Virus record (IMG/VR): IMGVR_UViG_3300048672_000430
Span: 18,108 to 82,107 of that record
DNA: 64,000 bases
DNA from: a virus
Direction: 5' to 3' (one strand)
Under the pieces are notes generated by a model that had not been told where the DNA came from, did no database searches, and was given only the letters and a program-made list of their open reading frames with translations. The position numbers and the translations under genes were made by a program. Positions 4,665 through 34,031 of the stretch are shown here, one piece after another. The number at the start of each line of letters is the position of its first letter. Position 1 is the first letter of the stretch.

Positions 4665-4684
4665 GGGGGTAGGTAGGTGGGGGG
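4665..4684. other. G-rich tract, candidate genome terminus or packaging signal
   Basis: GGGGGTAGGTAGGTGGGGGG in an otherwise AT-rich genome, at the late/early divergence. Confidence 0.35.
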
Positions 4685-6656: not shown

Positions 6657-6687
6657 GGGCGGTTTAATATCGCCCCCTGTCCTTTTT
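6657..6687 (+). terminator. Possible intrinsic terminator
   Basis: GGGCGG/TCGCCC hairpin, with the T-run displaced by 7 nt. Confidence 0.35.
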
Positions 6688-6977: not shown

Positions 6978-8438
6978 GTGAAAATGAACTTAGAATCATT
7001 TACTGTTAAGGGTACAATAATTCAAACAAATAAAGACTTATATGGTGGTGGATATGGTGGCACATATATTTATAAGATCGTAAAGAGTGCCAAATTAAAT
7101 CCAGATAAAACATTCCTAACTAATCAACCAATTCTTGTAAACGAAGACAACAGGCGAATATATCCTTATCTAACAAATTCTAGATTATTAGAATTAAATA
7201 TTAAAGAAATCAAATGTGAAAAAACAATAAAAGAATTTAATAAAATTTTAGTTGACTCGAAAAGGAAAAATGCCTTTAAAAATCTAACCAACGGTATTGT
7301 AGAAACTTTAGGAAGCGACCCTGAAATTTTTGTGGTAGATGAAAACGATAAAGTAATTCCTTCTTATGAATTTTTAAATGGTAAAGATAATCCAAATTTA
7401 ACAGGAACATACAAGGAATTTAAAATAAATGGTAATTGTGGTGCAAATGTAAATCAAAAAATGTTTTGGGACGGTTTCCAAGCTGAATTTAATACAGATG
7501 CTCAAAGTTGTTTAGCCTGGGTATGTGACTCGACTGTACTCGGTTTACAATCCGTTTTGAAAGAAGCAAAAAAGTATAATCCAAATGCAAGATTAACAAT
7601 TCAAACAACAGTAGACATTGATAAGAATGTTCTAGATAACGCTAAACCTGAACATGTAGAGTTCGGTTGTATGCCATCGTTTAACGTATATAATATGTCA
7701 GGAATCAAGGCAGATGGTAGGTCGGTATCATTTAGATCAGCAGGTGGACATATTCACTTCGGTATGAGTGACTTAACTAAAACGAAAGCTAAAAGATATG
7801 TAAAGGCACTAGATAAGATTCTAGGTGTTGCATGTGTTTCATTGTTTAATACTTACGACGACCCTAGAAGACGTACTATGTACGGATTAGCAGGTGAATA
7901 TAGATTACCTGCACACGGTTTAGAATATAGAACATTAAGTAATGCGTGGTTATCTCACCCGCTTATTATGAATCTAGTATTTGAAATGGCTAGAAAGGTA
8001 ATAGGTGCAGAAGAGGACGAACAAATGCAATTCTGGGATTCAACAGAAGAAGAAACTATTAGATGTATCAATACATGTGATGTTGATTTAGCTAGGGAGA
8101 TTTTAGCAAGAAATAAAACAAACCTGATTAATCTCTTAAAATCTATAAGTTCTATAAGTTATAATGAAAATGCTGAATATATCTATAAAATTTTAATGTT
8201 AGGTATGCAATCGATCATTGAAAATCCTGATGATATATCGGGTAATTGGTCATTCGAAAATCTTTATAAAGGTCATTGTGATGCAGACGGTATGCAACTT
8301 ATTACAATAGATAATATACCAAATTATAGATTATTAAAAGATGAGAAGGTTACTGCGATATATGAACAACTAGCATTTAATATTAAGCAATTAGATAATG
8401 ATGAGGAAACTATGACATTGAAAGAAGTTATGGGGTAG
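6978..8438 (+). CDS. phiEco32-like COOH.NH2 ligase type 2
   Basis: TLGSDPEIFV, FGCMPSFNVY, RSAGGHIHFG, RRRTMYGLAGEYR, GLEYRTLSNAWL. Confidence 0.88.
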   Translation: MKMNLESFTVKGTIIQTNKDLYGGGYGGTYIYKIVKSAKLNPDKTFLTNQPILVNEDNRRIYPYLTNSRLLELNIKEIKCEKTIKEFNKILVDSKRKNAFKNLTNGIVETLGSDPEIFVVDENDKVIPSYEFLNGKDNPNLTGTYKEFKINGNCGANVNQKMFWDGFQAEFNTDAQSCLAWVCDSTVLGLQSVLKEAKKYNPNARLTIQTTVDIDKNVLDNAKPEHVEFGCMPSFNVYNMSGIKADGRSVSFRSAGGHIHFGMSDLTKTKAKRYVKALDKILGVACVSLFNTYDDPRRRTMYGLAGEYRLPAHGLEYRTLSNAWLSHPLIMNLVFEMARKVIGAEEDEQMQFWDSTEEETIRCINTCDVDLAREILARNKTNLINLLKSISSISYNENAEYIYKILMLGMQSIIENPDDISGNWSFENLYKGHCDADGMQLITIDNIPNYRLLKDEKVTAIYEQLAFNIKQLDNDEETMTLKEVMG

Positions 8439-9274: not shown

Positions 9275-9565
9275 ATGCACGCATTTGTAGAAGACATACT
9301 ACAATTCACTTTAAACAATAAGAAGCATCAACATTTTCAAGAAAAGGAAACAAGATATTCATTCGTTATATGTAATAGGAATATATATGCTCACGATAGT
9401 AGTGTGACATTACACAATGGTAAAACGGATATACATAGGAATTTTGATAGATTTAATGTGATTAAATCACCTCATAGATTACAGCCTATTTTTTTAAGTC
9501 GAGAAACTATGAGAGATTCTTATAAAAATAGACCATTTAGTGATTTGGTAAAAATAGTGGAGTAG
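9275..9565 (+). CDS. Small protein, Q-YxF family
   Basis: DILQF...RYSFVI...LVKIVE; GAGGT RBS. Confidence 0.6.
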   Translation: MHAFVEDILQFTLNNKKHQHFQEKETRYSFVICNRNIYAHDSSVTLHNGKTDIHRNFDRFNVIKSPHRLQPIFLSRETMRDSYKNRPFSDLVKIVE

Positions 9566-9568
9566 TAA

Positions 9569-9745
9569 ATGGAAAAAATAAAACATATTTATTCAAAAGA
9601 ATTAGGTCAATTATTTATGAGAATGACCGACGAAGAATATTTCGATTGGTTGAAAACAAACGAAGTAGAATATACTAAACCATTATTGGAATTAATAAAT
9701 GAAGATAAGGCTAATCTAAGTGATGAAGATTATACAGATACATAG
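9569..9745 (+). CDS. Acidic 58-aa hypothetical protein
   Basis: GGAG RBS; hand translation. Confidence 0.55.
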   Translation: MEKIKHIYSKELGQLFMRMTDEEYFDWLKTNEVEYTKPLLELINEDKANLSDEDYTDT

Positions 9746-9754
9746 GGGAACATC

Positions 9755-9919
9755 ATGATAATAATACAATGCGATAACGATTTATGTGAAGCCGGAAATG
9801 AATGGTCTGAACATATTAATTATCGATTTAGTAATGATTATATAGATTACGATGATTTCTTAAATAATGTTTCAAATGAAGAAGAATATAGAATAATATG
9901 GGAGGATACAAATGATTAA
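9755..9919 (+). CDS. Small protein, Q-YxF family (54 aa)
   Basis: MIIIQC...NYRFSN...YRIIWED; hand translation. Confidence 0.6.
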   Translation: MIIIQCDNDLCEAGNEWSEHINYRFSNDYIDYDDFLNNVSNEEEYRIIWEDTND

Positions 9920-11312
9920 TGTTGGATCAATAATAAAAATTAATGATGAACTTTGTCCAGAAAATGAACGCTCTAATAAAAGATTTCAATTCGGTGCTTT
10001 AAATTATATCGCAATTATGTTGGATTGGGAGTTTGAGGTAGTACGAGAATTTAAAGATGAGTTTCATGGTGACATGGTAGAATGTAAAATTACCAATAGT
10101 GATAATATCAAGTCAAACATTGTTCTTAGAACACAAGATACAGTGTTAGCTAAGTCAAATAAATTCAATTTAACTTATGAGATTATCGGTAAAACAGGAA
10201 GGTTTGATGCTGAGATAAGAGAACTCAAGAGAGAAGAAAATGATCTACTCTTAGTTCGTGCGGAAGAAAAAAGAAAAGGCACACCGATCACTGATAAAAC
10301 ACTTATTCAAAATTGGTCAGAAGTTAAATCAGTTAGAAATAAGATCAAGCGTTATCAAGAAAATACTGATAAAGTTTTTGTTGTCAAACATTCGTCTGGT
10401 ACTTACGAGATTGATTGTGCTGAGGAACAAATTCCAACAAAGCTTAGATCTTTAATTAGAAGTATGCGTGCTGATAGACGCAAAGTTTACCCTGTCACAA
10501 AAGAAATTGGTGGCGGTATGACATTAGAGAAATTAGGTAATGTCATGGTTAAACCTGGTAAGTTCCTGGAATTAAATGAGAAGTATGCTTTGAATATTAT
10601 TAAGGCACATAAGAAACCTACAACAAACGATAACTATGTTGGTATTGAAATTGAGATGTTATCACCTAAAAGTATTGAAGAAATGAATAAAGAGTTTATT
10701 AAGTCAAGATTACATAAGTATGTGAATGTTGGTACAGATGGTTCAATTAGAAGTGACATTAGTGGTGTTCATGCTATGGAATTGAGGGTATGTTTACCTG
10801 AAAACTTATTAGCTACTCATTTAAAAATGATTACAGAAGTATTACGTAAAACAGACTCTTATGCAAATCGTTCATGTGGTATGCACGTTCACGTTGATAT
10901 GAGAAATCGTGACCCTGAGCTATGTTACAGAAACTTCTTTAAAGTTCAAAATATTATGCTACAAGCTCAACCATTAACTAGACGTACAAACCAATACTGC
11001 AAACCTAGTACGATAGCTAGCAAAAAATTAAAAGACTTCTCAAGTAATGGTGATGATAACGTGAGACGACAAGCAATTAATACTGACTCGTATCATAAAA
11101 ACGATATGAAGACTATTGAGATCAGAGTACACGAAGGTGCTACTAAGTTCAAAGATATATTTAATTGGGTAAATTTCTTAGTTGCGACCGCTTCCCTTAA
11201 AAAAGATTTGGACGCACCTATTAATACTATTAAAGAATTAAGATCTGCTAATTTCGTAAATGAATTAGTAATTAATCATTTAAATGAACGTATTGAAGAG
11301 TATTCGGCTTAA
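9912..11312 (+). CDS. Putative amidoligase (Amidoligase_2 family) with N-terminal extension
   Basis: YVGIEIE, TDGSI, MELR, SCGMHVHVD, YCK, TIEIR. Confidence 0.85.
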   Translation: MINVGSIIKINDELCPENERSNKRFQFGALNYIAIMLDWEFEVVREFKDEFHGDMVECKITNSDNIKSNIVLRTQDTVLAKSNKFNLTYEIIGKTGRFDAEIRELKREENDLLLVRAEEKRKGTPITDKTLIQNWSEVKSVRNKIKRYQENTDKVFVVKHSSGTYEIDCAEEQIPTKLRSLIRSMRADRRKVYPVTKEIGGGMTLEKLGNVMVKPGKFLELNEKYALNIIKAHKKPTTNDNYVGIEIEMLSPKSIEEMNKEFIKSRLHKYVNVGTDGSIRSDISGVHAMELRVCLPENLLATHLKMITEVLRKTDSYANRSCGMHVHVDMRNRDPELCYRNFFKVQNIMLQAQPLTRRTNQYCKPSTIASKKLKDFSSNGDDNVRRQAINTDSYHKNDMKTIEIRVHEGATKFKDIFNWVNFLVATASLKKDLDAPINTIKELRSANFVNELVINHLNERIEEYSA

Positions 11313-11340
11313 TTATAATAAAACTAATATGAGGTAAAAA

Positions 11341-12558
11341 ATGTGTAAAGTTATGGTAATGACCGGGATAGAAAATAATGATCTAGCCCTGAGATTTATG
11401 AAAGCAGTAGCACCCAACATGTCAGTAGGTAATACCGACGGCATTGGGTACTCCGCAGTAAATTCTAAGAATCAACTGTTCATGGAAAAATGGCACGTTA
11501 ATAATAAGTTCTTAAATACGAACGATGTTGTAGACGCTAAGACTATTGAGGAATTAAAACCTTATGAGAATAGGATAGGTAAACTCCAATTAAATTACAC
11601 AAGTTATGGTGATGTAACAAGAGACGATCTTAGATCAGTGACTATGCACACCAGGTACGCAACATGTGGAAAAACATTTGAGAATACTCACCCATTTATT
11701 GAAAATGATATATCCCTTATTCATAATGGTGTTATTCAAAATTCTTTTACATTAGCATTAAATAAAAATTCAACTTGTGACTCCGAAAACGCTTTACAAT
11801 TATACAATAACTTACAAGTTAATTTGAGTAAGAAAAGTACAGACTATCAAAGTTTCCTAGATAAGTTAAAGGGTTATTGGGCATTTGCTTTTCTTGCAAA
11901 AGATTCTGAAGGTACATATCAACTAGATGTTGTTCGTGAGGGTGCACCATTATACTTTGCAAAGATTGAAGAAATCGGAGTTAATTGTGTTGTGTTTGCA
12001 ACAACAAAAGAAATCATCGAGATAGGTTGTAAAGAATTAGAGTTACCAGTTAGATCACAGATCTATCTACTAACTGAGTCTAACTATCACAGATTTAACG
12101 CATTAACAGGCGAGTTAATACTTAATAAACAACTCGAAGATTCTTTATTAAATGCTTCATCGTATAGCTATTCAAAAGTATTTAAATCAAATAAGACAAA
12201 GAAAAAAGAACCTTATCAACCACTAAATAATAACAACATAGATGAATACTATGACTACTACAATAGTCAAGAAAATTACAAGGATCTTACATCAGTAACC
12301 GATGAGTTCTTATTAGATTCGTTCTATGATATTAATGAGCCTTTAGTTGATAGACTTGATTCTTATGATAAAATGTTCGACACTGAGTATTTATCTAACT
12401 TTGAAGATCTAGCTATTAAAATCCGTGACTTCATAACAAAACAAGAATATAAAGAAGTTATTAGTTTTGCCGAAATTATCTTAATGTTAGACGCTTATAT
12501 TGCAAGTGAAAATATATCAGACCTTTATAAAGTATTTAGAAATAAACGTAGGGCTTAA
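11341..12558 (+). CDS. Class II (Ntn) glutamine amidotransferase
   Basis: Cys2 nucleophile, DGIG, HTRYATCG, NTHPF, HNGVI, DSE. Confidence 0.88.
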   Translation: MCKVMVMTGIENNDLALRFMKAVAPNMSVGNTDGIGYSAVNSKNQLFMEKWHVNNKFLNTNDVVDAKTIEELKPYENRIGKLQLNYTSYGDVTRDDLRSVTMHTRYATCGKTFENTHPFIENDISLIHNGVIQNSFTLALNKNSTCDSENALQLYNNLQVNLSKKSTDYQSFLDKLKGYWAFAFLAKDSEGTYQLDVVREGAPLYFAKIEEIGVNCVVFATTKEIIEIGCKELELPVRSQIYLLTESNYHRFNALTGELILNKQLEDSLLNASSYSYSKVFKSNKTKKKEPYQPLNNNNIDEYYDYYNSQENYKDLTSVTDEFLLDSFYDINEPLVDRLDSYDKMFDTEYLSNFEDLAIKIRDFITKQEYKEVISFAEIILMLDAYIASENISDLYKVFRNKRRA

Positions 12559-12561
12559 TTT

Positions 12562-12702
12562 ATGGACATAATACAATACAAATCAAGATACTATTGGTTT
12601 AGATTTAGAGAAAATCGCATTAACTTTTATTACTCTTCGGAAACCTTAATAGAAAGCGGAGGTAATGACCTTCCTTATTGTGTAATTAAAAACCTGGATT
12701 AA
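12562..12702 (+). CDS. Small protein, Q-YxF family (46 aa)
   Basis: MDIIQYKSRYYWFRFRENRINFYYSSETLIESGGNDLPYCVIKNLD. Confidence 0.7.
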   Translation: MDIIQYKSRYYWFRFRENRINFYYSSETLIESGGNDLPYCVIKNLD

Positions 12703-12715
12703 TTTGGAGGTATAA

Positions 12716-12874
12716 ATGTATGACGTAGAATTGATACAGTATACTGAAAAAAGAACATTTTATTTTAGATTTCGTATTGATAATGTAAACTTTTATTGGA
12801 ATAAAAACTTTTCATCGATTATTAAATCCGGTGGAAATTACATTCCTCATAACATAATTAAAATAATAGATTAA
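12716..12874 (+). CDS. Small protein, Q-YxF family (52 aa), close paralog of 12562
   Basis: MYDVELIQYTEKRTFYFRFRIDNVNFYWNKNFSSIIKSGGNYIPHNIIKIID; GGAGGT RBS. Confidence 0.75.
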   Translation: MYDVELIQYTEKRTFYFRFRIDNVNFYWNKNFSSIIKSGGNYIPHNIIKIID

Positions 12875-12885
12875 CGGGAGAAGTT

Positions 12886-13044
12886 ATGTTGCTCACTCAA
12901 TATAATAAATTTATCAGTCCGTCTCTTAGATATATTTTTCGACTATCTTCAGATGGTTATATATATAACAATAATGGAAGATTACATGGATCGACTATCC
13001 CTGATGATGATAAACTATATCAAATAATAATGGAGAGAATATGA
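12886..13044 (+). CDS. Small protein, Q-YxF family (52 aa)
   Basis: MLLTQY...RYIFRL...YQIIMERI; GGAG RBS; ATGA overlap with the next gene. Confidence 0.65.
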   Translation: MLLTQYNKFISPSLRYIFRLSSDGYIYNNNGRLHGSTIPDDDKLYQIIMERI

Positions 13045-13796
13045 AATTCACAATACTATATAGTGGTCGTTCTTCTAAAACAGGAAGGGATTTATTAAAT
13101 AAATTCAAGCCTTTATCTAGAAAGGCATTTAGAAAACGAACAGAAAAACGATTCAATACTGATGTTATTTTAAGATGGGGGTCAACTGAGACTTTCAATA
13201 AGTTAAGAGGTAGGCTAGAACTAAACACTTTAGAAGCTGTCAGAAATGCAAGCAATAAGTTAATCATGATGCAAAAATTAGTTGAGGCTAATATTCCAAC
13301 CGCAGAAATTCTTTTCAATCCTTATAATCAATCTCAAGATGTTATAGACAATTATCGTGATGATAATGGTGGATTTTTTATCAGAGGTTCAAACGATTCA
13401 ATAAGATATGACGATAGTATTAATCCTAATGACAAGTATATATCTAAACCAATTGTAAATAAGCGTAGAGAATATAGAGTCCACGTATTCAATGGTGAAG
13501 TTATAGCTATCTATGAGAAAATTCCTAACGATGAGAATGTTAAGTTATTCAAATCATATAACTGTCATTTCGAATTAAAGAATATAGAAAATTGTAGGCT
13601 AACCGAACAAGATAAACAAGTTTGTATAGATGCTGTAAATAAATTAGGATTACTATTTGGTGGTGTAGATTTAATGCGAGATAAGAATAAGAAAGTCTTT
13701 GTTTCGGAAGTAAATAGTGCCCCGGCTTTAAATGGAACTAACATAGATAGATATGTAACCAAAATAAACGAGTACATTCAAGCGATGGGAGTTTAA
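13041..13796 (+). CDS. ATP-grasp ligase (RimK-like, phiEco32 type)
   Basis: ILRWGS, ASNKL, REYRVHVFNGEVI, LGLLFGGVDL, EVNSAPAL. Confidence 0.88.
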   Translation: MKFTILYSGRSSKTGRDLLNKFKPLSRKAFRKRTEKRFNTDVILRWGSTETFNKLRGRLELNTLEAVRNASNKLIMMQKLVEANIPTAEILFNPYNQSQDVIDNYRDDNGGFFIRGSNDSIRYDDSINPNDKYISKPIVNKRREYRVHVFNGEVIAIYEKIPNDENVKLFKSYNCHFELKNIENCRLTEQDKQVCIDAVNKLGLLFGGVDLMRDKNKKVFVSEVNSAPALNGTNIDRYVTKINEYIQAMGV

Positions 13797-13797
13797 A

Positions 13798-13935
13798 ATG
13801 ATTGTGTTATTTCAAACAACAGACAAGCATCAGAATAATTATAGATTCTATTTACATAGATTTGCGGAAAATATATCGTTTGATGTGATATGTACGGTAA
13901 ATAAGTATCATAGTAACGCTATAATGGTATTATAA
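13798..13935 (+). CDS. Small protein, Q-YxF family (45 aa)
   Basis: MIVLFQ...NYRFYL...AIMVL; GGGAG RBS. Confidence 0.6.
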   Translation: MIVLFQTTDKHQNNYRFYLHRFAENISFDVICTVNKYHSNAIMVL

Positions 13936-14081
13936 TGAGTCTAATAATACTAATATCCCTTATACTTTTTTTATTCTCACCATTTGGTAGAATAGCCGTG
14001 ATGTATTTAGCCACCCTTATCCTGGAATCAATGTGGTTATTTATATTCATATTAATGATTGTCTTTCTTAAAAAGAGGTAA
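13935..14081 (+). CDS. Small two-TM membrane protein (48 aa)
   Basis: Almost entirely hydrophobic, ends KKR; TAATG coupling. Confidence 0.55.
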   Translation: MSLIILISLILFLFSPFGRIAVMYLATLILESMWLFIFILMIVFLKKR

Positions 14082-14084
14082 GTA

Positions 14085-14381
14085 ATGAAATTTCCAATCT
14101 CTGTAATTAAAATAGATAACTATATGGTATTAATTAATAGTGGCGAAGTAACTAAAGACTTTATTTCAAATTTAAAAAAACTTGAGCTAACTAGAACTCC
14201 ACGTGATATGAAGATAGTATCGTGTGACTACCCAGCATTTAGTGGTCACACAATATACATAAGTGGTGATGACAGATCAAAACGATATCAAACATGTAAG
14301 ACTGCGTACAATGAGCCATTATTTAATAGCTATCAAGAAATAATAAAATATTATGCTAACAAAATGGGTTACGATGAGTAA
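14085..14381 (+). CDS. Hypothetical protein
   Basis: GAGGT RBS. Confidence 0.6.
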   Translation: MKFPISVIKIDNYMVLINSGEVTKDFISNLKKLELTRTPRDMKIVSCDYPAFSGHTIYISGDDRSKRYQTCKTAYNEPLFNSYQEIIKYYANKMGYDE

Positions 14382-14601
14382 TAAAATAGATGATATGTTA
14401 GAAGAATTTATCTCAGAAGTATCTGAGAATTATACTGAAGATTCTGATGTAGAAGAGTTATTTAGAAACTCTATGAATAAGATTTTAACTAAAAAGAAAC
14501 AAGGTATAGGACATGTATTAAAGACTCAAGTAATGTTTGAGATTGAAGAAGACATGGCTTTGCCTATATTTCCATCAGAGGAAATGTATGACGAGGATTA
14601 A
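14374..14601 (+). CDS. Acidic hypothetical protein
   Basis: Start moved to MSNKID. Confidence 0.55.
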   Translation: MSNKIDDMLEEFISEVSENYTEDSDVEELFRNSMNKILTKKKQGIGHVLKTQVMFEIEEDMALPIFPSEEMYDED

Positions 14602-14836
14602 GTATGTTAAAGAGAACGATACTTTAATTAGTCCAGTCTTTATAAACTACGAAGGTAAGAGATACCGTATTCTTATCCACACACAAAAGAACCATTACAC
14701 TGTAACAATCAGAACAACAACAGGAAAAATAGTAGAGGTTGTTAGTTGTGATGAATTATCCAAAGCAAAAAGAACAGCAAGAAACCTGATTATTAATAAA
14801 TATAATGTGAGAATCAAACACGAGGTTAGACGATGA
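14588..14836 (+). CDS. Basic hypothetical protein
   Basis: Start moved to MTRIKY (GAGG RBS). Confidence 0.55.
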   Translation: MTRIKYVKENDTLISPVFINYEGKRYRILIHTQKNHYTVTIRTTTGKIVEVVSCDELSKAKRTARNLIINKYNVRIKHEVRR

Positions 14837-14988
14837 AGATAGGTCAAGTTAGTGCACCATTTGAAAACTCAATACAATATTCATTTGCTTTAATATCTTT
14901 TGTTACTATGGATAGTGTTGTATTTGTTAGAGATATAGGCGGAATTAATTGTGTCATGAGAAAATATATTAAAATTATACAGGAGTAA
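14833..14988 (+). CDS. Small protein, Q-YxF family (51 aa)
   Basis: MKIGQV...QYSFALI...YIKIIQE; GAGGT RBS; ATGA overlap. Confidence 0.65.
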   Translation: MKIGQVSAPFENSIQYSFALISFVTMDSVVFVRDIGGINCVMRKYIKIIQE

Positions 14989-14991
14989 CAT

Positions 14992-15273
14992 ATGAGAACA
15001 ATAGGAGATAGATTAGCTGAATTAGACAAGACAGAATCAACAGTAGCTGATTTTAATAGAATATTCGATGATGTACCATTAACAAGATTCAAAGATACCG
15101 ATACAGTCTTAGTTGGTGAGATCACAAAAAATGCAACAACTAGACAATTATTAATTAACAATGTAGCTATTGAACATAGCTTTGAAAGGAGACTTACAAG
15201 TGAAAATGAAATTATTATTACTGACGACAATGTTATTAGCGACGACGATTTTTGGATGTGCCAGTTCGTCTAA
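14992..15273 (+). CDS. Hypothetical protein
   Basis: AGGAG RBS. Confidence 0.6.
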   Translation: MRTIGDRLAELDKTESTVADFNRIFDDVPLTRFKDTDTVLVGEITKNATTRQLLINNVAIEHSFERRLTSENEIIITDDNVISDDDFWMCQFV

Positions 15274-15331
15274 ACCTTTGACAGAAGAAGAACGAAGAGA
15301 AGCTAGGCGACTAGCCAGAGAAGTTCGATAG
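15206..15331 (+). CDS. Small lipoprotein (41 aa) overlapping the upstream gene
   Basis: MKLLLLTTMLLATTIFGCASSSKPLTEEERREARRLAREVR; lipobox IFGC; AAGGAG upstream; stops at a terminator. Confidence 0.65.
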   Translation: MKLLLLTTMLLATTIFGCASSSKPLTEEERREARRLAREVR

Positions 15332-15356
15332 CCCCTGAATTGGGGCCTTTTTATTT
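15331..15356 (+). terminator. Intrinsic terminator
   Basis: GCCCC-TGAATT-GGGGC followed by CTTTTTATTT. Confidence 0.7.
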
Positions 15357-15365
15357 GGAGATAAA

Positions 15366-15518
15366 ATGATAAGCATATTGCAAGCATCTACTGGACTACA
15401 TTTCGGAAAATATTCGTTTCATATATTCCACCTAAACGGAGATCTAAGAACAATTAGAAGTGATAAATTTAGAGAATCAACTTACTGGAATACAATTTTA
15501 ATAGACGTGGAGTTATAA
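15366..15518 (+). CDS. Small protein, Q-YxF family (50 aa)
   Basis: MISILQ...KYSFHIF...TILIDVEL; GGAG RBS. Confidence 0.65.
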   Translation: MISILQASTGLHFGKYSFHIFHLNGDLRTIRSDKFRESTYWNTILIDVEL

Positions 15519-15766
15519 TGAGAAAAGAACTTTTAGTGTATGTTAATACTGGAGAAGCCAACGAAGAAATCAGTGTGACCTCGGTTGCCAAACATCGTAG
15601 CTTAGTGTTGATCACTACATCAACAGGAACTAAATTTACAGCAAACAGAGAAGAGTTATTAGAAGCGTTACAAGCGATTGCAACATTTGATAGTTCAGTC
15701 ACTACTAAACCCGAACCAATAGACAATCTAAATACTTTAGAAGTTAGCTATGGAGACGAACAATGA
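15518..15766 (+). CDS. Hypothetical protein
   Basis: GGAG RBS, coupled. Confidence 0.6.
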   Translation: MRKELLVYVNTGEANEEISVTSVAKHRSLVLITTSTGTKFTANREELLEALQAIATFDSSVTTKPEPIDNLNTLEVSYGDEQ

Positions 15767-16020
15767 AAATCGTACAAATATCAACCACTGACAGATTCGT
15801 AGGTGATCACACCGGATACTATAGATATGAGTTCGGTATTATTACGGGAAATTCTGGAGCAGGAAATTATATTGTTGATTTCGGTAAGAGACCTCCTGAG
15901 ATTTTATCGATCTTGAAAGAGATTAGGGATTTTGATGGTGATTATGAAGAAGATGAATATTTTAGAGAAGATTTCTCTGTTCTTAAAAAAGAATGTAATA
16001 TTATAGGAGTTTTTAAATGA
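15763..16020 (+). CDS. Small protein, Q-YxF family (85 aa)
   Basis: MKIVQI...RYEFGII...CNIIGVFK. Confidence 0.6.
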   Translation: MKIVQISTTDRFVGDHTGYYRYEFGIITGNSGAGNYIVDFGKRPPEILSILKEIRDFDGDYEEDEYFREDFSVLKKECNIIGVFK

Positions 16021-16232
16021 TATTATTTTTAGTATTTAATATAGCTCTACTTACGTCGAGTCTATATTTATTGTTTCAAACAATGTTAAATTATTCGGTC
16101 TTATTATCCTTGCCAACACCATTGATAATTGTTTATGTAATTGGTGTTATCACCCCGCTACTTAATATATACGATAGTATTAAGAATCTACTATCATTAA
16201 CAGTGAGTTCAGTCGATGAAGATAGTATGTAA
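16017..16232 (+). CDS. Two-TM membrane protein
   Basis: Hydrophobic; AGGAG RBS. Confidence 0.55.
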   Translation: MILFLVFNIALLTSSLYLLFQTMLNYSVLLSLPTPLIIVYVIGVITPLLNIYDSIKNLLSLTVSSVDEDSM

Positions 16233-16518
16233 ACCAACGCCTAGATTTAAACGTTTTTTTATTGAACAGTGGGTAGAATTTTATGGATATCATTGTGCAT
16301 ACTGTACGGGATATTGTGAAAATGATAGAACAATAGATCACATTATACCAATAAGTAAAGGTGGTAGAAACCAATTTATAAACATGGTCTTAGCTTGTCG
16401 TAAGTGTAATGAAGAGAAAGCAAACAAAATGCCAGAAGAGTTTAGAACACTAATGTTACAACCAATACAAAACAAACACAAAAGGAAAGAAAATCATGAC
16501 GAAAAAAGAGTTGGATGA
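16216..16518 (+). CDS. HNH endonuclease
   Basis: CAYC...TIDHIIPISKGG.N...NMVLACRKCNEEK. Confidence 0.85.
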   Translation: MKIVCKPTPRFKRFFIEQWVEFYGYHCAYCTGYCENDRTIDHIIPISKGGRNQFINMVLACRKCNEEKANKMPEEFRTLMLQPIQNKHKRKENHDEKRVG

Positions 16519-16777
16519 ATTATATATGAAGTTATCAGCAAAGCATAATATTGGTTCGCCTTCATATGTACTTGGATCAATAATCGAAGATGAACCATCT
16601 TATTATGATCGTAAGATCAGGGAACTAGAAGAATATAACAGGAGAGCATCTATGACTAGATATCCTGTTGAATATCAACTCACTCTACTAAATAAACAGA
16701 TCGAAGAATTAAAAGCAGAGAATGAATATCTAAAAGAAATCATAGAAGAAGAAAGGAGCACAAATGGATTGGCGTAA
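16496..16777 (+). CDS. Coiled-coil hypothetical protein
   Basis: ORF in operon. Confidence 0.55.
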   Translation: MTKKELDELYMKLSAKHNIGSPSYVLGSIIEDEPSYYDRKIRELEEYNRRASMTRYPVEYQLTLLNKQIEELKAENEYLKEIIEEERSTNGLA

Positions 16778-17246
16778 AATTAAAGGTTATTCAAATTATT
16801 TATTAAATGAAAACGGAGATCTATATAATGTTAAACTGGATTCTTTCCAAAAAGGCTACACAAATTCATCTGGAGTTCGTTACGTATCTTTATCTAAAAA
16901 TGGACAAGGTAAGTGTGTACCCCTTGCAGAGCTTGTTCTAAATGTATTCAAGCCTTCAAGAACTGTTATTAAAACTTACGCTTGGCATGAAGATTTAGAA
17001 CTAATTAATTGTTCTAATGATAACCTATTAAGATGTAATAGGGCAGATCGTTTGAGAATGTTTAATGAAATCAAGAAAAAGAAAAGAGGTGTTTATTCCT
17101 GGAACATAGGAAAGAATAATTTCCGAGTTGTTTTAAAAGATAAGCATGGAAAAACAAAGACAATAGGTTACTATAGAACAGAATTTTTTGCTAGATTTAT
17201 GTATATAAAGGCATATCAAAAAGAGTTTGGCAGACCACCTTACTAG
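16764..17246 (+). CDS. NUMOD4 / degenerate HNH / AP2-like homing-endonuclease-derived protein
   Basis: WRKIKGYSNYLLNENGD (NUMOD4); eroded HNH segment; GVY...TIGYY AP2-like end. Confidence 0.65.
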   Translation: MDWRKIKGYSNYLLNENGDLYNVKLDSFQKGYTNSSGVRYVSLSKNGQGKCVPLAELVLNVFKPSRTVIKTYAWHEDLELINCSNDNLLRCNRADRLRMFNEIKKKKRGVYSWNIGKNNFRVVLKDKHGKTKTIGYYRTEFFARFMYIKAYQKEFGRPPY

Positions 17247-17254
17247 GAGAATAT

Positions 17255-17485
17255 ATGATTCTTAAAATACTTATAATACTATTTATTGCATATTGTTTTG
17301 TTTGTTTTTTAATTGTACATACCACTCTTTTTTGTGATAAGAAAAGTAGAAAATCATTATCACGTCTATCTGAATCGTTTCATGACGAAAATAGAGGAGG
17401 TTTTATGTTGCCATCGGAGTACAAAAAACTATTACAAATTAGAGAAGTAATCGATAGACAACTAGCGAGAATAGAGGATGATTAA
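17255..17485 (+). CDS. Membrane-anchored hypothetical protein
   Basis: N-terminal TM; AGGAG RBS. Confidence 0.55.
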   Translation: MILKILIILFIAYCFVCFLIVHTTLFCDKKSRKSLSRLSESFHDENRGGFMLPSEYKKLLQIREVIDRQLARIEDD

Positions 17486-17637
17486 AAAAATAATAACTTC
17501 CGTAACCATAACCTATGCAATGTTATTTAGTATGAGAATTGTAACAATCGCAACACCACTTAATATAGCGGAGCAGGTATCTATTATAGCAATGCTCATT
17601 GAGTATACGGTAATGAAGAGTAATAAAGGAGATAAGA

Positions 17638-17934
17638 ATGATTAGTTATTTAAAAAGTTTATTCAGTAAAAACAACAAAGAAGATACCGAAGAGATTGAA
17701 GAAGCCCTACGTAAGTTTCATCATAGAAATTCACAGAGTCCTCCTGTATATCAAGATAATAATGTTAATCGAGAGCTAGAAGATGTTGTAACCACTGTAC
17801 TAATCAATGCAGCATTTGACAGCTTGACAAGTTCGGAAAGTTGTGATATACTAACCTCTTCGACTAGTGACACCTCTGATTGGTCTGGAGGTGGTGGTGA
17901 TTTTTCAGGTGGCGGTGCAGATGGAAATTTTTAA
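17638..17934 (+). CDS. Hypothetical protein with Ser/Gly-rich tail
   Basis: Ends WSGGGGDFSGGGADGNF; AAGGAG RBS. Confidence 0.65.
   Translation: MISYLKSLFSKNNKEDTEEIEEALRKFHHRNSQSPPVYQDNNVNRELEDVVTTVLINAAFDSLTSSESCDILTSSTSDTSDWSGGGGDFSGGGADGNF
17824..17852 (+). promoter_or_regulatory. Intragenic sigma70 promoter TTGACA-17-TATACT
   Basis: Near consensus with extended -10 TG; upstream of the RNR unit. Confidence 0.6.
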
Positions 17935-18139
17935 TGAAACAATGGATTCTGTAATCTATCAGTACGGTGGCAGTTCTCGTACAAAATATGAATTTACTTA
18001 TCGGGATGAAAGCAGTTATACTGATGGTCACAGTATAGATGAAAATGTGGCATATTGGTCAAGCACAAATAGCGATCTCCCTGACATTACACAAAGGTAT
18101 GCTTCAGTAATAAAGGTGTATAGAAAATGTTCAGTATAA
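17921..18139 (+). CDS. Small protein, Q-YxF family
   Basis: SVIYQY...KYEFTY...SVIKVY; start uncertain. Confidence 0.55.
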   Translation: MEIFNETMDSVIYQYGGSSRTKYEFTYRDESSYTDGHSIDENVAYWSSTNSDLPDITQRYASVIKVYRKCSV

Positions 18140-18255
18140 CGCAGTCTAAAGGTAATTACTCATTTGGGGTATATGAAGATTATGAAAGTTTAAATATCTT
18201 AAGAATAATAGAAGAAACAAGATGGTTTAAAATAATTGCAATTGACTTAAATTAA
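18127..18255 (+). CDS. Small protein, Q-YxF family (42 aa)
   Basis: MFSITQSKGNYSFGVY...FKIIAIDLN; AAGGTG RBS. Confidence 0.6.
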   Translation: MFSITQSKGNYSFGVYEDYESLNILRIIEETRWFKIIAIDLN

Positions 18256-33350: not shown

Positions 33351-34031
33351 ATGGACTATTTATCTGAAAGATACGGACTTATTACTGATAATGATACAGA
33401 AACCGAGAACGGACAATTATTTTTGGCTGAGTATCAGTTATTATTGGACTATAAAAAAGGTAGTGAAATTAATAAGATGTCGGCATTTATAACAATGTTG
33501 GAACAGTTACGAAATAGTTACGTAGAAGAGGGTCTCTATCACCGTAATCCTGATCTAATAAATAGACGTATAATGTCTCATGATAATTTATCAGGAATTA
33601 TGGCTTGGTCTAAGTATAATAATACAACACATAGATTTGAAATATGGGATTACCTGTTGAAGCACCTCGGTACTTATGATAATTCAAAGGGTAAATCAAA
33701 ACAACTATCTAGATTTTTACCATTCAACCCTAGTAATTTTTTTATTTGGGGACTATGTGCGGAATCTAAAATATACTTATTATTCTTACCTTTCTTTCTA
33801 ATTAACCTTATTTTAACTTGCAATAAGCCGCCAGGGAATACATCAGGTAAGATACTAGCTTGGGTTGAAATGTATTCATTAAGAGACCACTTTATTGTAA
33901 AGCACATATTCAAGTACTATGAAACTAAAATGAGACAACAATATGGTACTGATTATATTGAAGCTTTAATGAAGATTTATCACGGCTCAAATTCCAAAGA
34001 CTTCCCAATAAACAAAATACTTGACAAATAA
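33351..34031 (+). CDS. Hypothetical helical protein
   Basis: 226 aa ORF; AAGGA RBS. Confidence 0.65.
   Translation: MDYLSERYGLITDNDTETENGQLFLAEYQLLLDYKKGSEINKMSAFITMLEQLRNSYVEEGLYHRNPDLINRRIMSHDNLSGIMAWSKYNNTTHRFEIWDYLLKHLGTYDNSKGKSKQLSRFLPFNPSNFFIWGLCAESKIYLLFLPFFLINLILTCNKPPGNTSGKILAWVEMYSLRDHFIVKHIFKYYETKMRQQYGTDYIEALMKIYHGSNSKDFPINKILDK

Follow-up and report, generated by a model that had tools for sequence, protein, structure and literature searches.

Do the many very small genes scattered through the early region of an uncultured freshwater phage form a single protein family, and do they serve the amide-ligase cassette beside which several of them lie? The record in question, IMGVR_UViG_3300048672_000430, comprises 82,107 bases and is 96% complete. 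We analysed a stretch of 64,000 nucleotides (bases 18108-82107 of the record), hereafter the window, whose coordinates are used throughout; it has a G+C content of ~32%, and its genes are tightly packed on the plus strand from ~5 kb to 44.5 kb. An original prediction, made from the DNA letters, held that about eleven micro-proteins between 9275 and 18255 share three short blocks (a hydrophobic-x-Gln block, Y-x-F and IKII) separated by loops of variable length, and connected them either with a module of four ligase genes or with an anti-defence array. We find that these genes belong to a real, previously unrecorded micro-protein family that extends across a clade of phages; each genome carries roughly a dozen fast-evolving copies at conserved positions.

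An array of related micro-protein genes

All 11 of the proposed open reading frames (ORFs) were found in place on the plus strand, and eight of them encode fewer than 60 residues (54, 46, 52, 52, 45, 51, 50 and 42). One start needed correction: the ORF placed at 17921 exists, but its ATG falls within the gene 17638-17934, and the more likely start at 17942 gives the N-terminus MDSVIYQ, resembling the other copies. Shine-Dalgarno-like motifs were seen at 9 of the 11 family ORFs. The genes are listed below together with a possible twelfth copy. Ranks are those under a hidden Markov model (HMM) built from the 33 members of related phages alone, and L163 and L167 are related phage loci, both described in the next section.

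9275 to 9565, plus strand: family member, 96 residues, the longest (MHAFVEDILQ..RYSF..LVKIVE, Gln at residue 10); rank 5 of 324; Shine-Dalgarno-like motif; L163 has family-like genes at 4670 and 4798 in this position
9755 to 9919, plus strand: family member, 54 residues, 3' end overlapping the amidoligase start by 8 nt; rank 8 of 324; positional counterpart L163 5097-5231, likewise abutting the amidoligase gene
12562 to 12702, plus strand: family member, 46 residues, first of a tandem trio after the glutamine amidotransferase (GATase) gene; rank 9 of 324
12716 to 12874, plus strand: family member, 52 residues, second of the tandem trio; rank 10 of 324
12886 to 13044, plus strand: family member, 52 residues, stop overlapping the ATP-grasp start (ATGA); rank 7 of 324; phmmer match to L167 9159-9311, E 0.0047
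13798 to 13935, plus strand: family member, 45 residues, beginning 1 nt past the ATP-grasp stop; rank 29 of 324; positional counterpart L163 8969-9130
14833 to 14988, plus strand: family member, 51 residues; rank 12 of 324; positional counterpart L163 10810-10938
15366 to 15518, plus strand: family member, 50 residues, first gene past a strong terminator; rank 23 of 324; positional counterpart L163 11444-11590
15763 to 16020, plus strand: family member, 85 residues; rank 1 of 324; phmmer match to L163 11987-12211, E 1e-4
17942 to 18139, plus strand: family member, 65 residues, Shine-Dalgarno-like motif not seen; rank 3 of 324
18127 to 18255, plus strand: family member, 42 residues, last gene ahead of the ribonucleotide reductase gene, as L163 16085-16276 precedes the L163 reductase; rank 4 of 324
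17313 to 17450, plus strand: possible twelfth copy, 45 residues, TTG start, out of frame in ORF 17255-17485, Phe in place of Gln

An unbiased pattern search, comparison with shuffled sets and replication in relatives each indicate that the shared pattern is not due to chance. Without any prior motif, we scored all two-block forms M-x(0-8)-[ab]-x-c-x(3-22)-d-x-e, ~1.5 million in number, against the 68 small plus-strand genes. The top pattern was exactly [IL].Q...Y.F, present in 10 of the 68 genes, whereas 200 shuffled sets gave a mean of 6.6 and a maximum of 9. Under a rarity-weighted statistic the observed value was p 2.3e-14, and none of 150 shuffled sets reached it (best 2.7e-8). A null drawn from real small genes of other phage loci, with orthologues kept, reached a raw count of at least 10 in 27 of 400 draws and thus counts against the motif claim; [IL].Q...Y.F itself occurs in just 1 of the 279 genes of this null.

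Pairwise comparison gave significance for 12562 and 12716 alone (phmmer E 2e-10), bearing out the earlier suspicion that these two stand out as a related pair. The signal does not come down to that pair on an AT-rich background, the outcome that would have undone the prediction; both the shuffled sets and the strand contrast in relatives described below argue otherwise. With leave-one-out profiles, six of the 11 ORFs rank first among 229 ORFs, a ranking that is biased because the 11 ORFs had been picked for the motif; 13798 is one of the six, yet it ranks just 29 of 324 under the relatives-only HMM. The codons of the conserved residues vary synonymously, and the constraint therefore acts on the protein and not on the DNA. 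Regarding the three proposed blocks, those around Gln and Y-x-F held up, whereas the third, IKII, is looser in the window, being found by a regular expression (regex) chosen post hoc in 6 of 11 copies compared with 7 of 57 other genes.

The possible twelfth copy (17313-17450) shares 13 of 31 residues with 13798-13935 (42% identity; BLASTP E 2e-5, phmmer E 5.4e-4), and its sequence would fit a decayed or overprinted family copy. The outer ORF (17255-17485) also contains an internal ATG at 17405 with a strong GAGGAGG site. Outside the array, a 41-residue out-of-frame ORF at 33676-33801 (plus strand), within gene 33351-34031, begins with MIIQRVNQ and matches the relatives-only family HMM with E 0.0075; this match may be due to chance or mark a relic.

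Recurrence in related phages

To find relatives of the window we relied on its RimK-type ATP-grasp ligase, for which we found 206 homologues, the closest being 86% identical. Alignment of 39 of the 120 listed homologues yielded 79 IMG/VR loci. Our close set consists of the nine loci with an ATP-grasp identity to the window of 41% or more, and it contains two near-duplicate pairs. L163 has an ATP-grasp that is 71% and a polymerase that is 66% identical to those of the window, and the ATP-grasp enzymes of L164 to L170 and L241 are 41-51% identical. A regex fixed on the window was then counted among the small ORFs on both strands of these and other loci:

Nine close ATP-grasp loci: plus strand 31 of 601 small ORFs; minus strand 1 of 580
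70 distant ATP-grasp loci: plus strand 13 of 3856 small ORFs; minus strand 27 of 5442
37 reductase loci: plus strand 5 of 2141 small ORFs; minus strand 36 of 3264

The regex remains at background level across the 107 unrelated loci (70 distant ATP-grasp loci and 37 reductase loci). An iterated HMM retrieved 44 of 704 ORFs on the plus strand and 0 of 679 on the minus strand. The HMM built from the relatives' members alone recovered the window ORFs at ranks 1, 3, 4, 5, 7, 8, 9, 10, 12, 23 and 29 of 324, with nine of the 11 in the top 12. Recurrence in relatives, recovery by this HMM and the wide variation in block spacing uphold the idea of a family that has kept a fixed core and diversified in its loops. 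Several phages carry tandem duplicates of family genes. Neither a family gene nor a ligase gene was found in the reductase-based loci L001 to L008; the blank in L001 and L002 is uninformative, since their polymerase is absent as well and they are not true kin. As a separate observation, the family-B DNA polymerase was matched in two or three pieces in the L163 and L241 records, and one of the pieces in the L163 record holds two TAG and one TAA codon internally; the gene could be broken, or interrupted by an intron or intein.

Conserved positions and rapid divergence

Gene order is collinear between the window and L163, and the ligases and many small non-family genes have detectable orthologues there (E 1e-5 to 1e-192). 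At 10 of 10 window family positions L163 carries a family-like gene, and for 15763 only (L163 11987) is the orthologue detectable by sequence. Between the window and L163, family pairs have a median identity of 27.5%, below the 41.5% of small neighbours outside the family (Mann-Whitney p 0.006). The same imbalance is seen at short range in L166 and L167, which are nearly the same phage. Their ATP-grasp genes are 99% identical, with 0.006 non-synonymous (dN) and 0.065 synonymous (dS) substitutions per site, and most neighbouring genes are 96-100% identical, whereas identity drops to 69-85% in the four family genes (dN 0.08-0.23, dS 0.26-0.50, dN/dS 0.25-0.70). Given these dN/dS values and the lower identity, the family genes are coding and constrained, yet form the most variable part of the locus. 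These sequence comparisons show that the common ancestor of the window phage and its relatives already had the array, and that its copies have been kept in place while diverging faster than their neighbours under purifying selection.

Scaffold, predicted fold and database searches

Most members have 42-65 residues, up to 96. The first block begins at the initiator Met and reads M-[I/K]-I-x-Q, the Gln being the fifth residue in 24 of 44 members and the sixth in 8. The second block, Y-x-F, follows the Gln after a gap of 4 to 17 residues in the window copies. The middle segment is variable, with W-x-Y frequent ahead of the last strand, a block that emerges only once relatives are added. At or near the C-terminus lies a hydrophobic block, [F/I]-x-[L/I]-[E]-h-h, which sharpens to F-x-L-E-h-h in relatives. 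The amino-acid composition of the members is of a beta-rich kind, high in F, Y and I and low in K, L, E and A. No segment of the family alignment is conserved to a degree that would serve a collection-wide scan. We obtained AlphaFold2 models of two copies, both predating the discovery of the relatives: 12562, from an 11-row alignment, was predicted with four strands and a C-terminal helix at a predicted local distance difference test (pLDDT) score of 77.7, and 15366, from nine rows excluding the 12562/12716 pair, with three strands on the three motifs at pLDDT 56. The fixed strands appear to form a small beta-rich sheet, with loops and surfaces that vary by copy, and support for this fold is weak. 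Protein-G-B1-like mini beta-grasp folds (W-T-Y...F-x-V-x-E) would be one possible resemblance. The 12562 model had no close structural match with Foldseek against the PDB (best E 3.4) or in the BFVD structure search (best E 0.91).

The sequence databases searched likewise yielded no recorded relative. Among 50,697 GenBank phage records, neither the region nor two family members had a relative by nucleotide or protein comparison; single queries of IMG/VR with the ATP-grasp and the GATase returned nothing; and in scans of 29 members against Pfam-A and PHROGs v4 with E up to 1, no family was matched by more than one member (best E 0.069 and 0.022, respectively). The defence library of PADLOC gave no match, two members had no usable match in the ESM Atlas, and the 29-row family profile matched nothing in the PDB with E of 10 or lower. 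When 1.84 billion proteins were searched with a profile, 24 matches emerged, namely eight of the window's own proteins and 16 tandem-repeat translations. We rejected these 16 proteins (P0008-P0011 and P0013-P0024; repeat unit ISQTTDFHFANYRFSFRKLQ; E 3.5e-6 to 7e-4) as a chance likeness to 13798 that is multiplied by repetition; from their sequence they look like translated satellite DNA. A word-based search gave 80 candidates, seven of them the window's own proteins, and no relative. Sequencing runs listed as carrying the sequence comprised one of DNA, probably the source sample, and none of RNA. In full-text literature searches we came across neither experimental studies of what the cassette makes nor any account of a micro-protein family of this sort. 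The family thus exposes a blind spot of homology searching: copies missed by the profile search of 1.84 billion proteins were found only through synteny with a conserved neighbour.

Common descent or chance likeness

Could small beta-rich proteins of an AT-rich phage look alike through composition and constraints at the coding start, without common descent? We consider this very improbable. In its favor are the single significant pair in the pairwise search, the Gln to Y-x-F spacing of 4 to 17 residues, and the non-deduplicated real-gene null, which equals the observed count in some draws. How easily likeness is seen is also illustrated by a candidate that we rejected: by eye, 12562 resembles Bas89 gp0074, a small protein of a phiEco32-type phage, and the match was empty on test. 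Against it, the composition-preserving shuffles never came near the observed statistic, the codons of the conserved residues vary, several phages hold tandem duplicates, and the additional shared blocks W-x-Y and F-x-L-E-h-h appear only upon adding relatives. The pattern is specific to one strand and one clade (31 of 601 on the plus strand, 1 of 580 on the minus strand in the close loci), which largely refutes independent origins.

Descent from a known family, as a very diverged branch of YegP/DUF1508 (PF07411), seems to us a highly improbable alternative, and we retain it only as a faint resemblance. YegP/DUF1508 domains are small beta-beta-beta-alpha units beginning M-x-F-E-I-Y-Q/K-D..G-x-Y-R-F-R-L. 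The likeness spans ~50 residues, in which a Met-initial hydrophobic strand ending in Q/K is followed by an aromatic-x-F strand, and the domain is similar in length to the family. The DUF1508 protein Atu0232 (PDB 2k7i; N-terminus M-Y-K-F-E-I-Y-Q-D-K-A-G-E-Y-R-F-R-F) was the fourth-ranked of eight PDB sequence matches of the 11-row profile, with E 0.34, aligned from Met through FEIYQDKAGEYRFRF. Under a DUF1508 HMM that we built from an alignment of 34 domain instances in sampled genomes, 13798 and 12716 came first and second of 296 sequences (E 0.27 and 1.1). The likeness then failed in several comparisons. With the PF07411 model (cut-off 22 bits) no sequence of the whole genome scored E 10 or better, although the controls were positive, and per-member Pfam scans had no such match either. 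DUF1508 probabilities from hhalign were 1.6% (32-row profile), 2.5% (11-row profile) and 7.6% (12562/12716 pair), with only the Y-x-F strand aligned. The candidates did not outscore other small genes (ranks 1, 9, 13, 15, 19, 26, 34, 35, 43, 46 and 60 of 68; p 0.097), the larger 29-row profile matched no PDB entry, and the conserved second half of the domain (NG..I..SE.Y...A..GI.SV) has no counterpart in the family. Among the listed Foldseek or VIA matches of the 12562 model there was no DUF1508 chain (2k7i or 2k8e), although at 46 residues this model is small for fold comparison.

The amide-ligase cassette and the possible role of the family

The micro-protein genes lie in and around a four-enzyme cassette, identified by Pfam and PHROGs scans. 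Two HNH endonuclease genes and the ribonucleotide reductase gene were also identified within the array stretch.

6978 to 8438, plus strand: phiEco32-type COOH-NH2 ligase (PF14395 E 2.6e-16; phrog_3815)
9912 to 11312, plus strand: Amidoligase_2 protein with a long N-terminal extension (PF12224 E 1.7e-10, residues 302-425)
11341 to 12558, plus strand: class-II GATase, protein starting MC (PF13522 E 9.3e-8)
13041 to 13796, plus strand: RimK-type ATP-grasp ligase with a family gene on each side (PF08443 E 9.8e-11; phrog_2599)
15331 to 15346, plus strand: intrinsic-terminator-like hairpin, GCCCC..GGGGC followed by a T run (consensus scan only)

By its sequence the hairpin likely splits the micro-protein array into two transcription units. 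A second terminator-like hairpin lies on the coding strand at 6657-6675 (plus strand).

The phiEco32-type cassette consists of a COOH-NH2 ligase, an Amidoligase_2 protein, a GATase-II and a RimK-like ATP-grasp, often with GGCT; of the scanned window genes, none was recognised as encoding GGCT. Such a cassette was reportedly described computationally by Iyer, Abhiman, Burroughs and Aravind in Mol Biosyst in 2009. Escherichia phage Bas89 and Pseudomonas phage tf share the window's order of the four enzymes, again with small ORFs between GATase and ATP-grasp. Pseudoalteromonas phage RIO-1 has the same enzymes, but its GATase-like gene precedes the COOH-NH2 ligase and its amidoligase abuts the ATP-grasp. 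The small ORFs of these phages fall into other PHROGs and are unlike the window family.

As the original prediction had noticed, the family adjoins three of the four ligase genes in the window: 9755 precedes the amidoligase, 12562 follows the GATase, and 12886 and 13798 flank the ATP-grasp, so that family genes border the amidoligase-GATase pair and the ATP-grasp on all four outer sides. The micro-proteins might be dedicated to the cassette as its substrates, carriers or specificity subunits, a reading that we hold to be unlikely but worth serious attention. The ATP-grasp or one of the two glutamine-synthetase-like ligases would then add amino acids or amide to a carboxylate in the acidic C-terminal strand or tail, and the products would be modified mini-proteins or tags. 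Co-occurrence in related phages, a check proposed with the original prediction, speaks partly for this. The gene just upstream of the ATP-grasp is a family member in 6 of 6 family-bearing phages (the window phage, L163, L164, L167, L170 and L241); five of the six show a 4-nt start/stop overlap (ATGA) between the two genes, and the arrangement persists down to an ATP-grasp identity of 41%. Between one and four family copies occupy the interval from GATase to ATP-grasp, and more lie directly downstream. RimK extends the acidic C-terminus of ribosomal protein S6, and in the relatives 22 of 27 family genes encode an acidic residue (D or E) among the final four, compared with 80 of 233 other small ORFs (p 3e-6); in the window itself such an acidic end is no commoner among family genes (8 of 11) than among other small genes (27 of 57).

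The cassette is, however, also found without the family. This is so in 6 of 6 cultured-phage loci examined, where the regex hit 3 of 768 small ORFs with no plausible member among them and the best family-HMM E was 0.26, and in L168 and L169, which belong to the same polymerase clade (polymerase 56% identical). The cassette is kilobases away from most copies, which are scattered through 9-13 kb between unrelated genes and on either side of the terminator. Moreover, 4-nt overlaps are frequent throughout the window genome, and the six cases of adjacency are not independent, because adjacency is inherited among related phages. The Gln sits in the first beta strand and is not terminal, and the likely twelfth copy lacks it. 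None of the 44 listed C-termini ends in GGQ, GGE or GG as in Pup- or ubiquitin-like tags. The narrower version, in which the family members are protein substrates whose carboxylates the ligases extend or amidate to yield a panel of modified fast-evolving micro-proteins or ligatable tags, is in our view distinctly improbable; if true, phages would encode a type of protein-ligation system that has yet to be demonstrated. Graspetide and microviridin precursors, peptides that are modified by ATP-grasp ligases, offer a comparison: like them, the window has several small diversified genes with a conserved N-terminal part adjoining a RimK-type ATP-grasp. Unlike such precursors, the family is conserved at both ends and not in a leader alone, one copy is predicted to form a beta sheet, and copies also occur far from the ligase. 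By eye, no repeated Thr/Ser/Lys-Asp/Glu core motif of graspetides was seen in the family alignments.

Phage early regions can hold arrays of small, fast-evolving, lineage-specific genes, such as host-takeover modules and anti-defence clusters. The window family is similar in consisting of many small early-region genes that diverge faster than the surrounding enzymes; it differs in that at least 11 genes share one scaffold, keep their positions across phages and match no recorded family. Since the family changes faster than any other part of the early region, which is otherwise conserved, its members are candidates for direct contact with host factors. Direct interaction with host or rival factors is probably their most likely role: we infer that the micro-proteins would be co-expressed with early and middle genes and would act as small stoichiometric binders of such factors, for host takeover or counter-defence, without being obligatory parts of the amide-ligase cassette. 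The suggestion of an anti-defence array is consistent with the fast evolution. We give an even chance to the joint proposition that this is a clade-specific, fast-evolving family on a small beta-rich scaffold and that its members serve as binders of host or rival factors.

Several points weigh against this proposition. The constant adjacency to the ATP-grasp fits a substrate or subunit of the cassette better than a free binder. The dS of the family genes is itself raised (0.26-0.50, compared with 0.065 for the ATP-grasp), and part of their divergence may thus stem from allele exchange instead of faster substitution. Fold support comes from one copy alone, the 15366 model being poor (pLDDT 56), and the C-terminal block is a helix in one model and a strand in the other. 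Finally, the relatives' members were picked with the window's own motif, so the HMM cross-checks are not fully independent; for this reason the strand and locus contrasts are the cleaner evidence and carry the weight. The constant place of a family gene beside the ATP-grasp provides an experimental handle on the product of the cassette.

Further observations on cassette loci

Both Burroughs et al. 2015 (PMC4431377) and Iyer et al. 2021 (PMC7824862) propose that host proteins are modified by phage ATP-grasp peptide ligases of the R2K clade. In the window, the Amidoligase_2 domain takes up residues 302-425 of the 466-residue protein encoded at 9912-11312. Other phages have a separate gene of ~190 residues upstream of a shorter amidoligase, and because of this arrangement elsewhere the window gene may be a fusion.

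Different small proteins surround the cassette in other phages. L168 (5000-14000) and L169 (400-9400) each hold, around the ATP-grasp, a different expanded family of 60-85 residues with N-termini such as MK..GD(I/V)VQ. In Vibrio phage 275E43-1 the ATP-grasp is followed by six ORFs of 69-84 residues, two of which are clear paralogues. Judging from these gene layouts, small-protein arrays beside a cassette ligase may be a wider theme.

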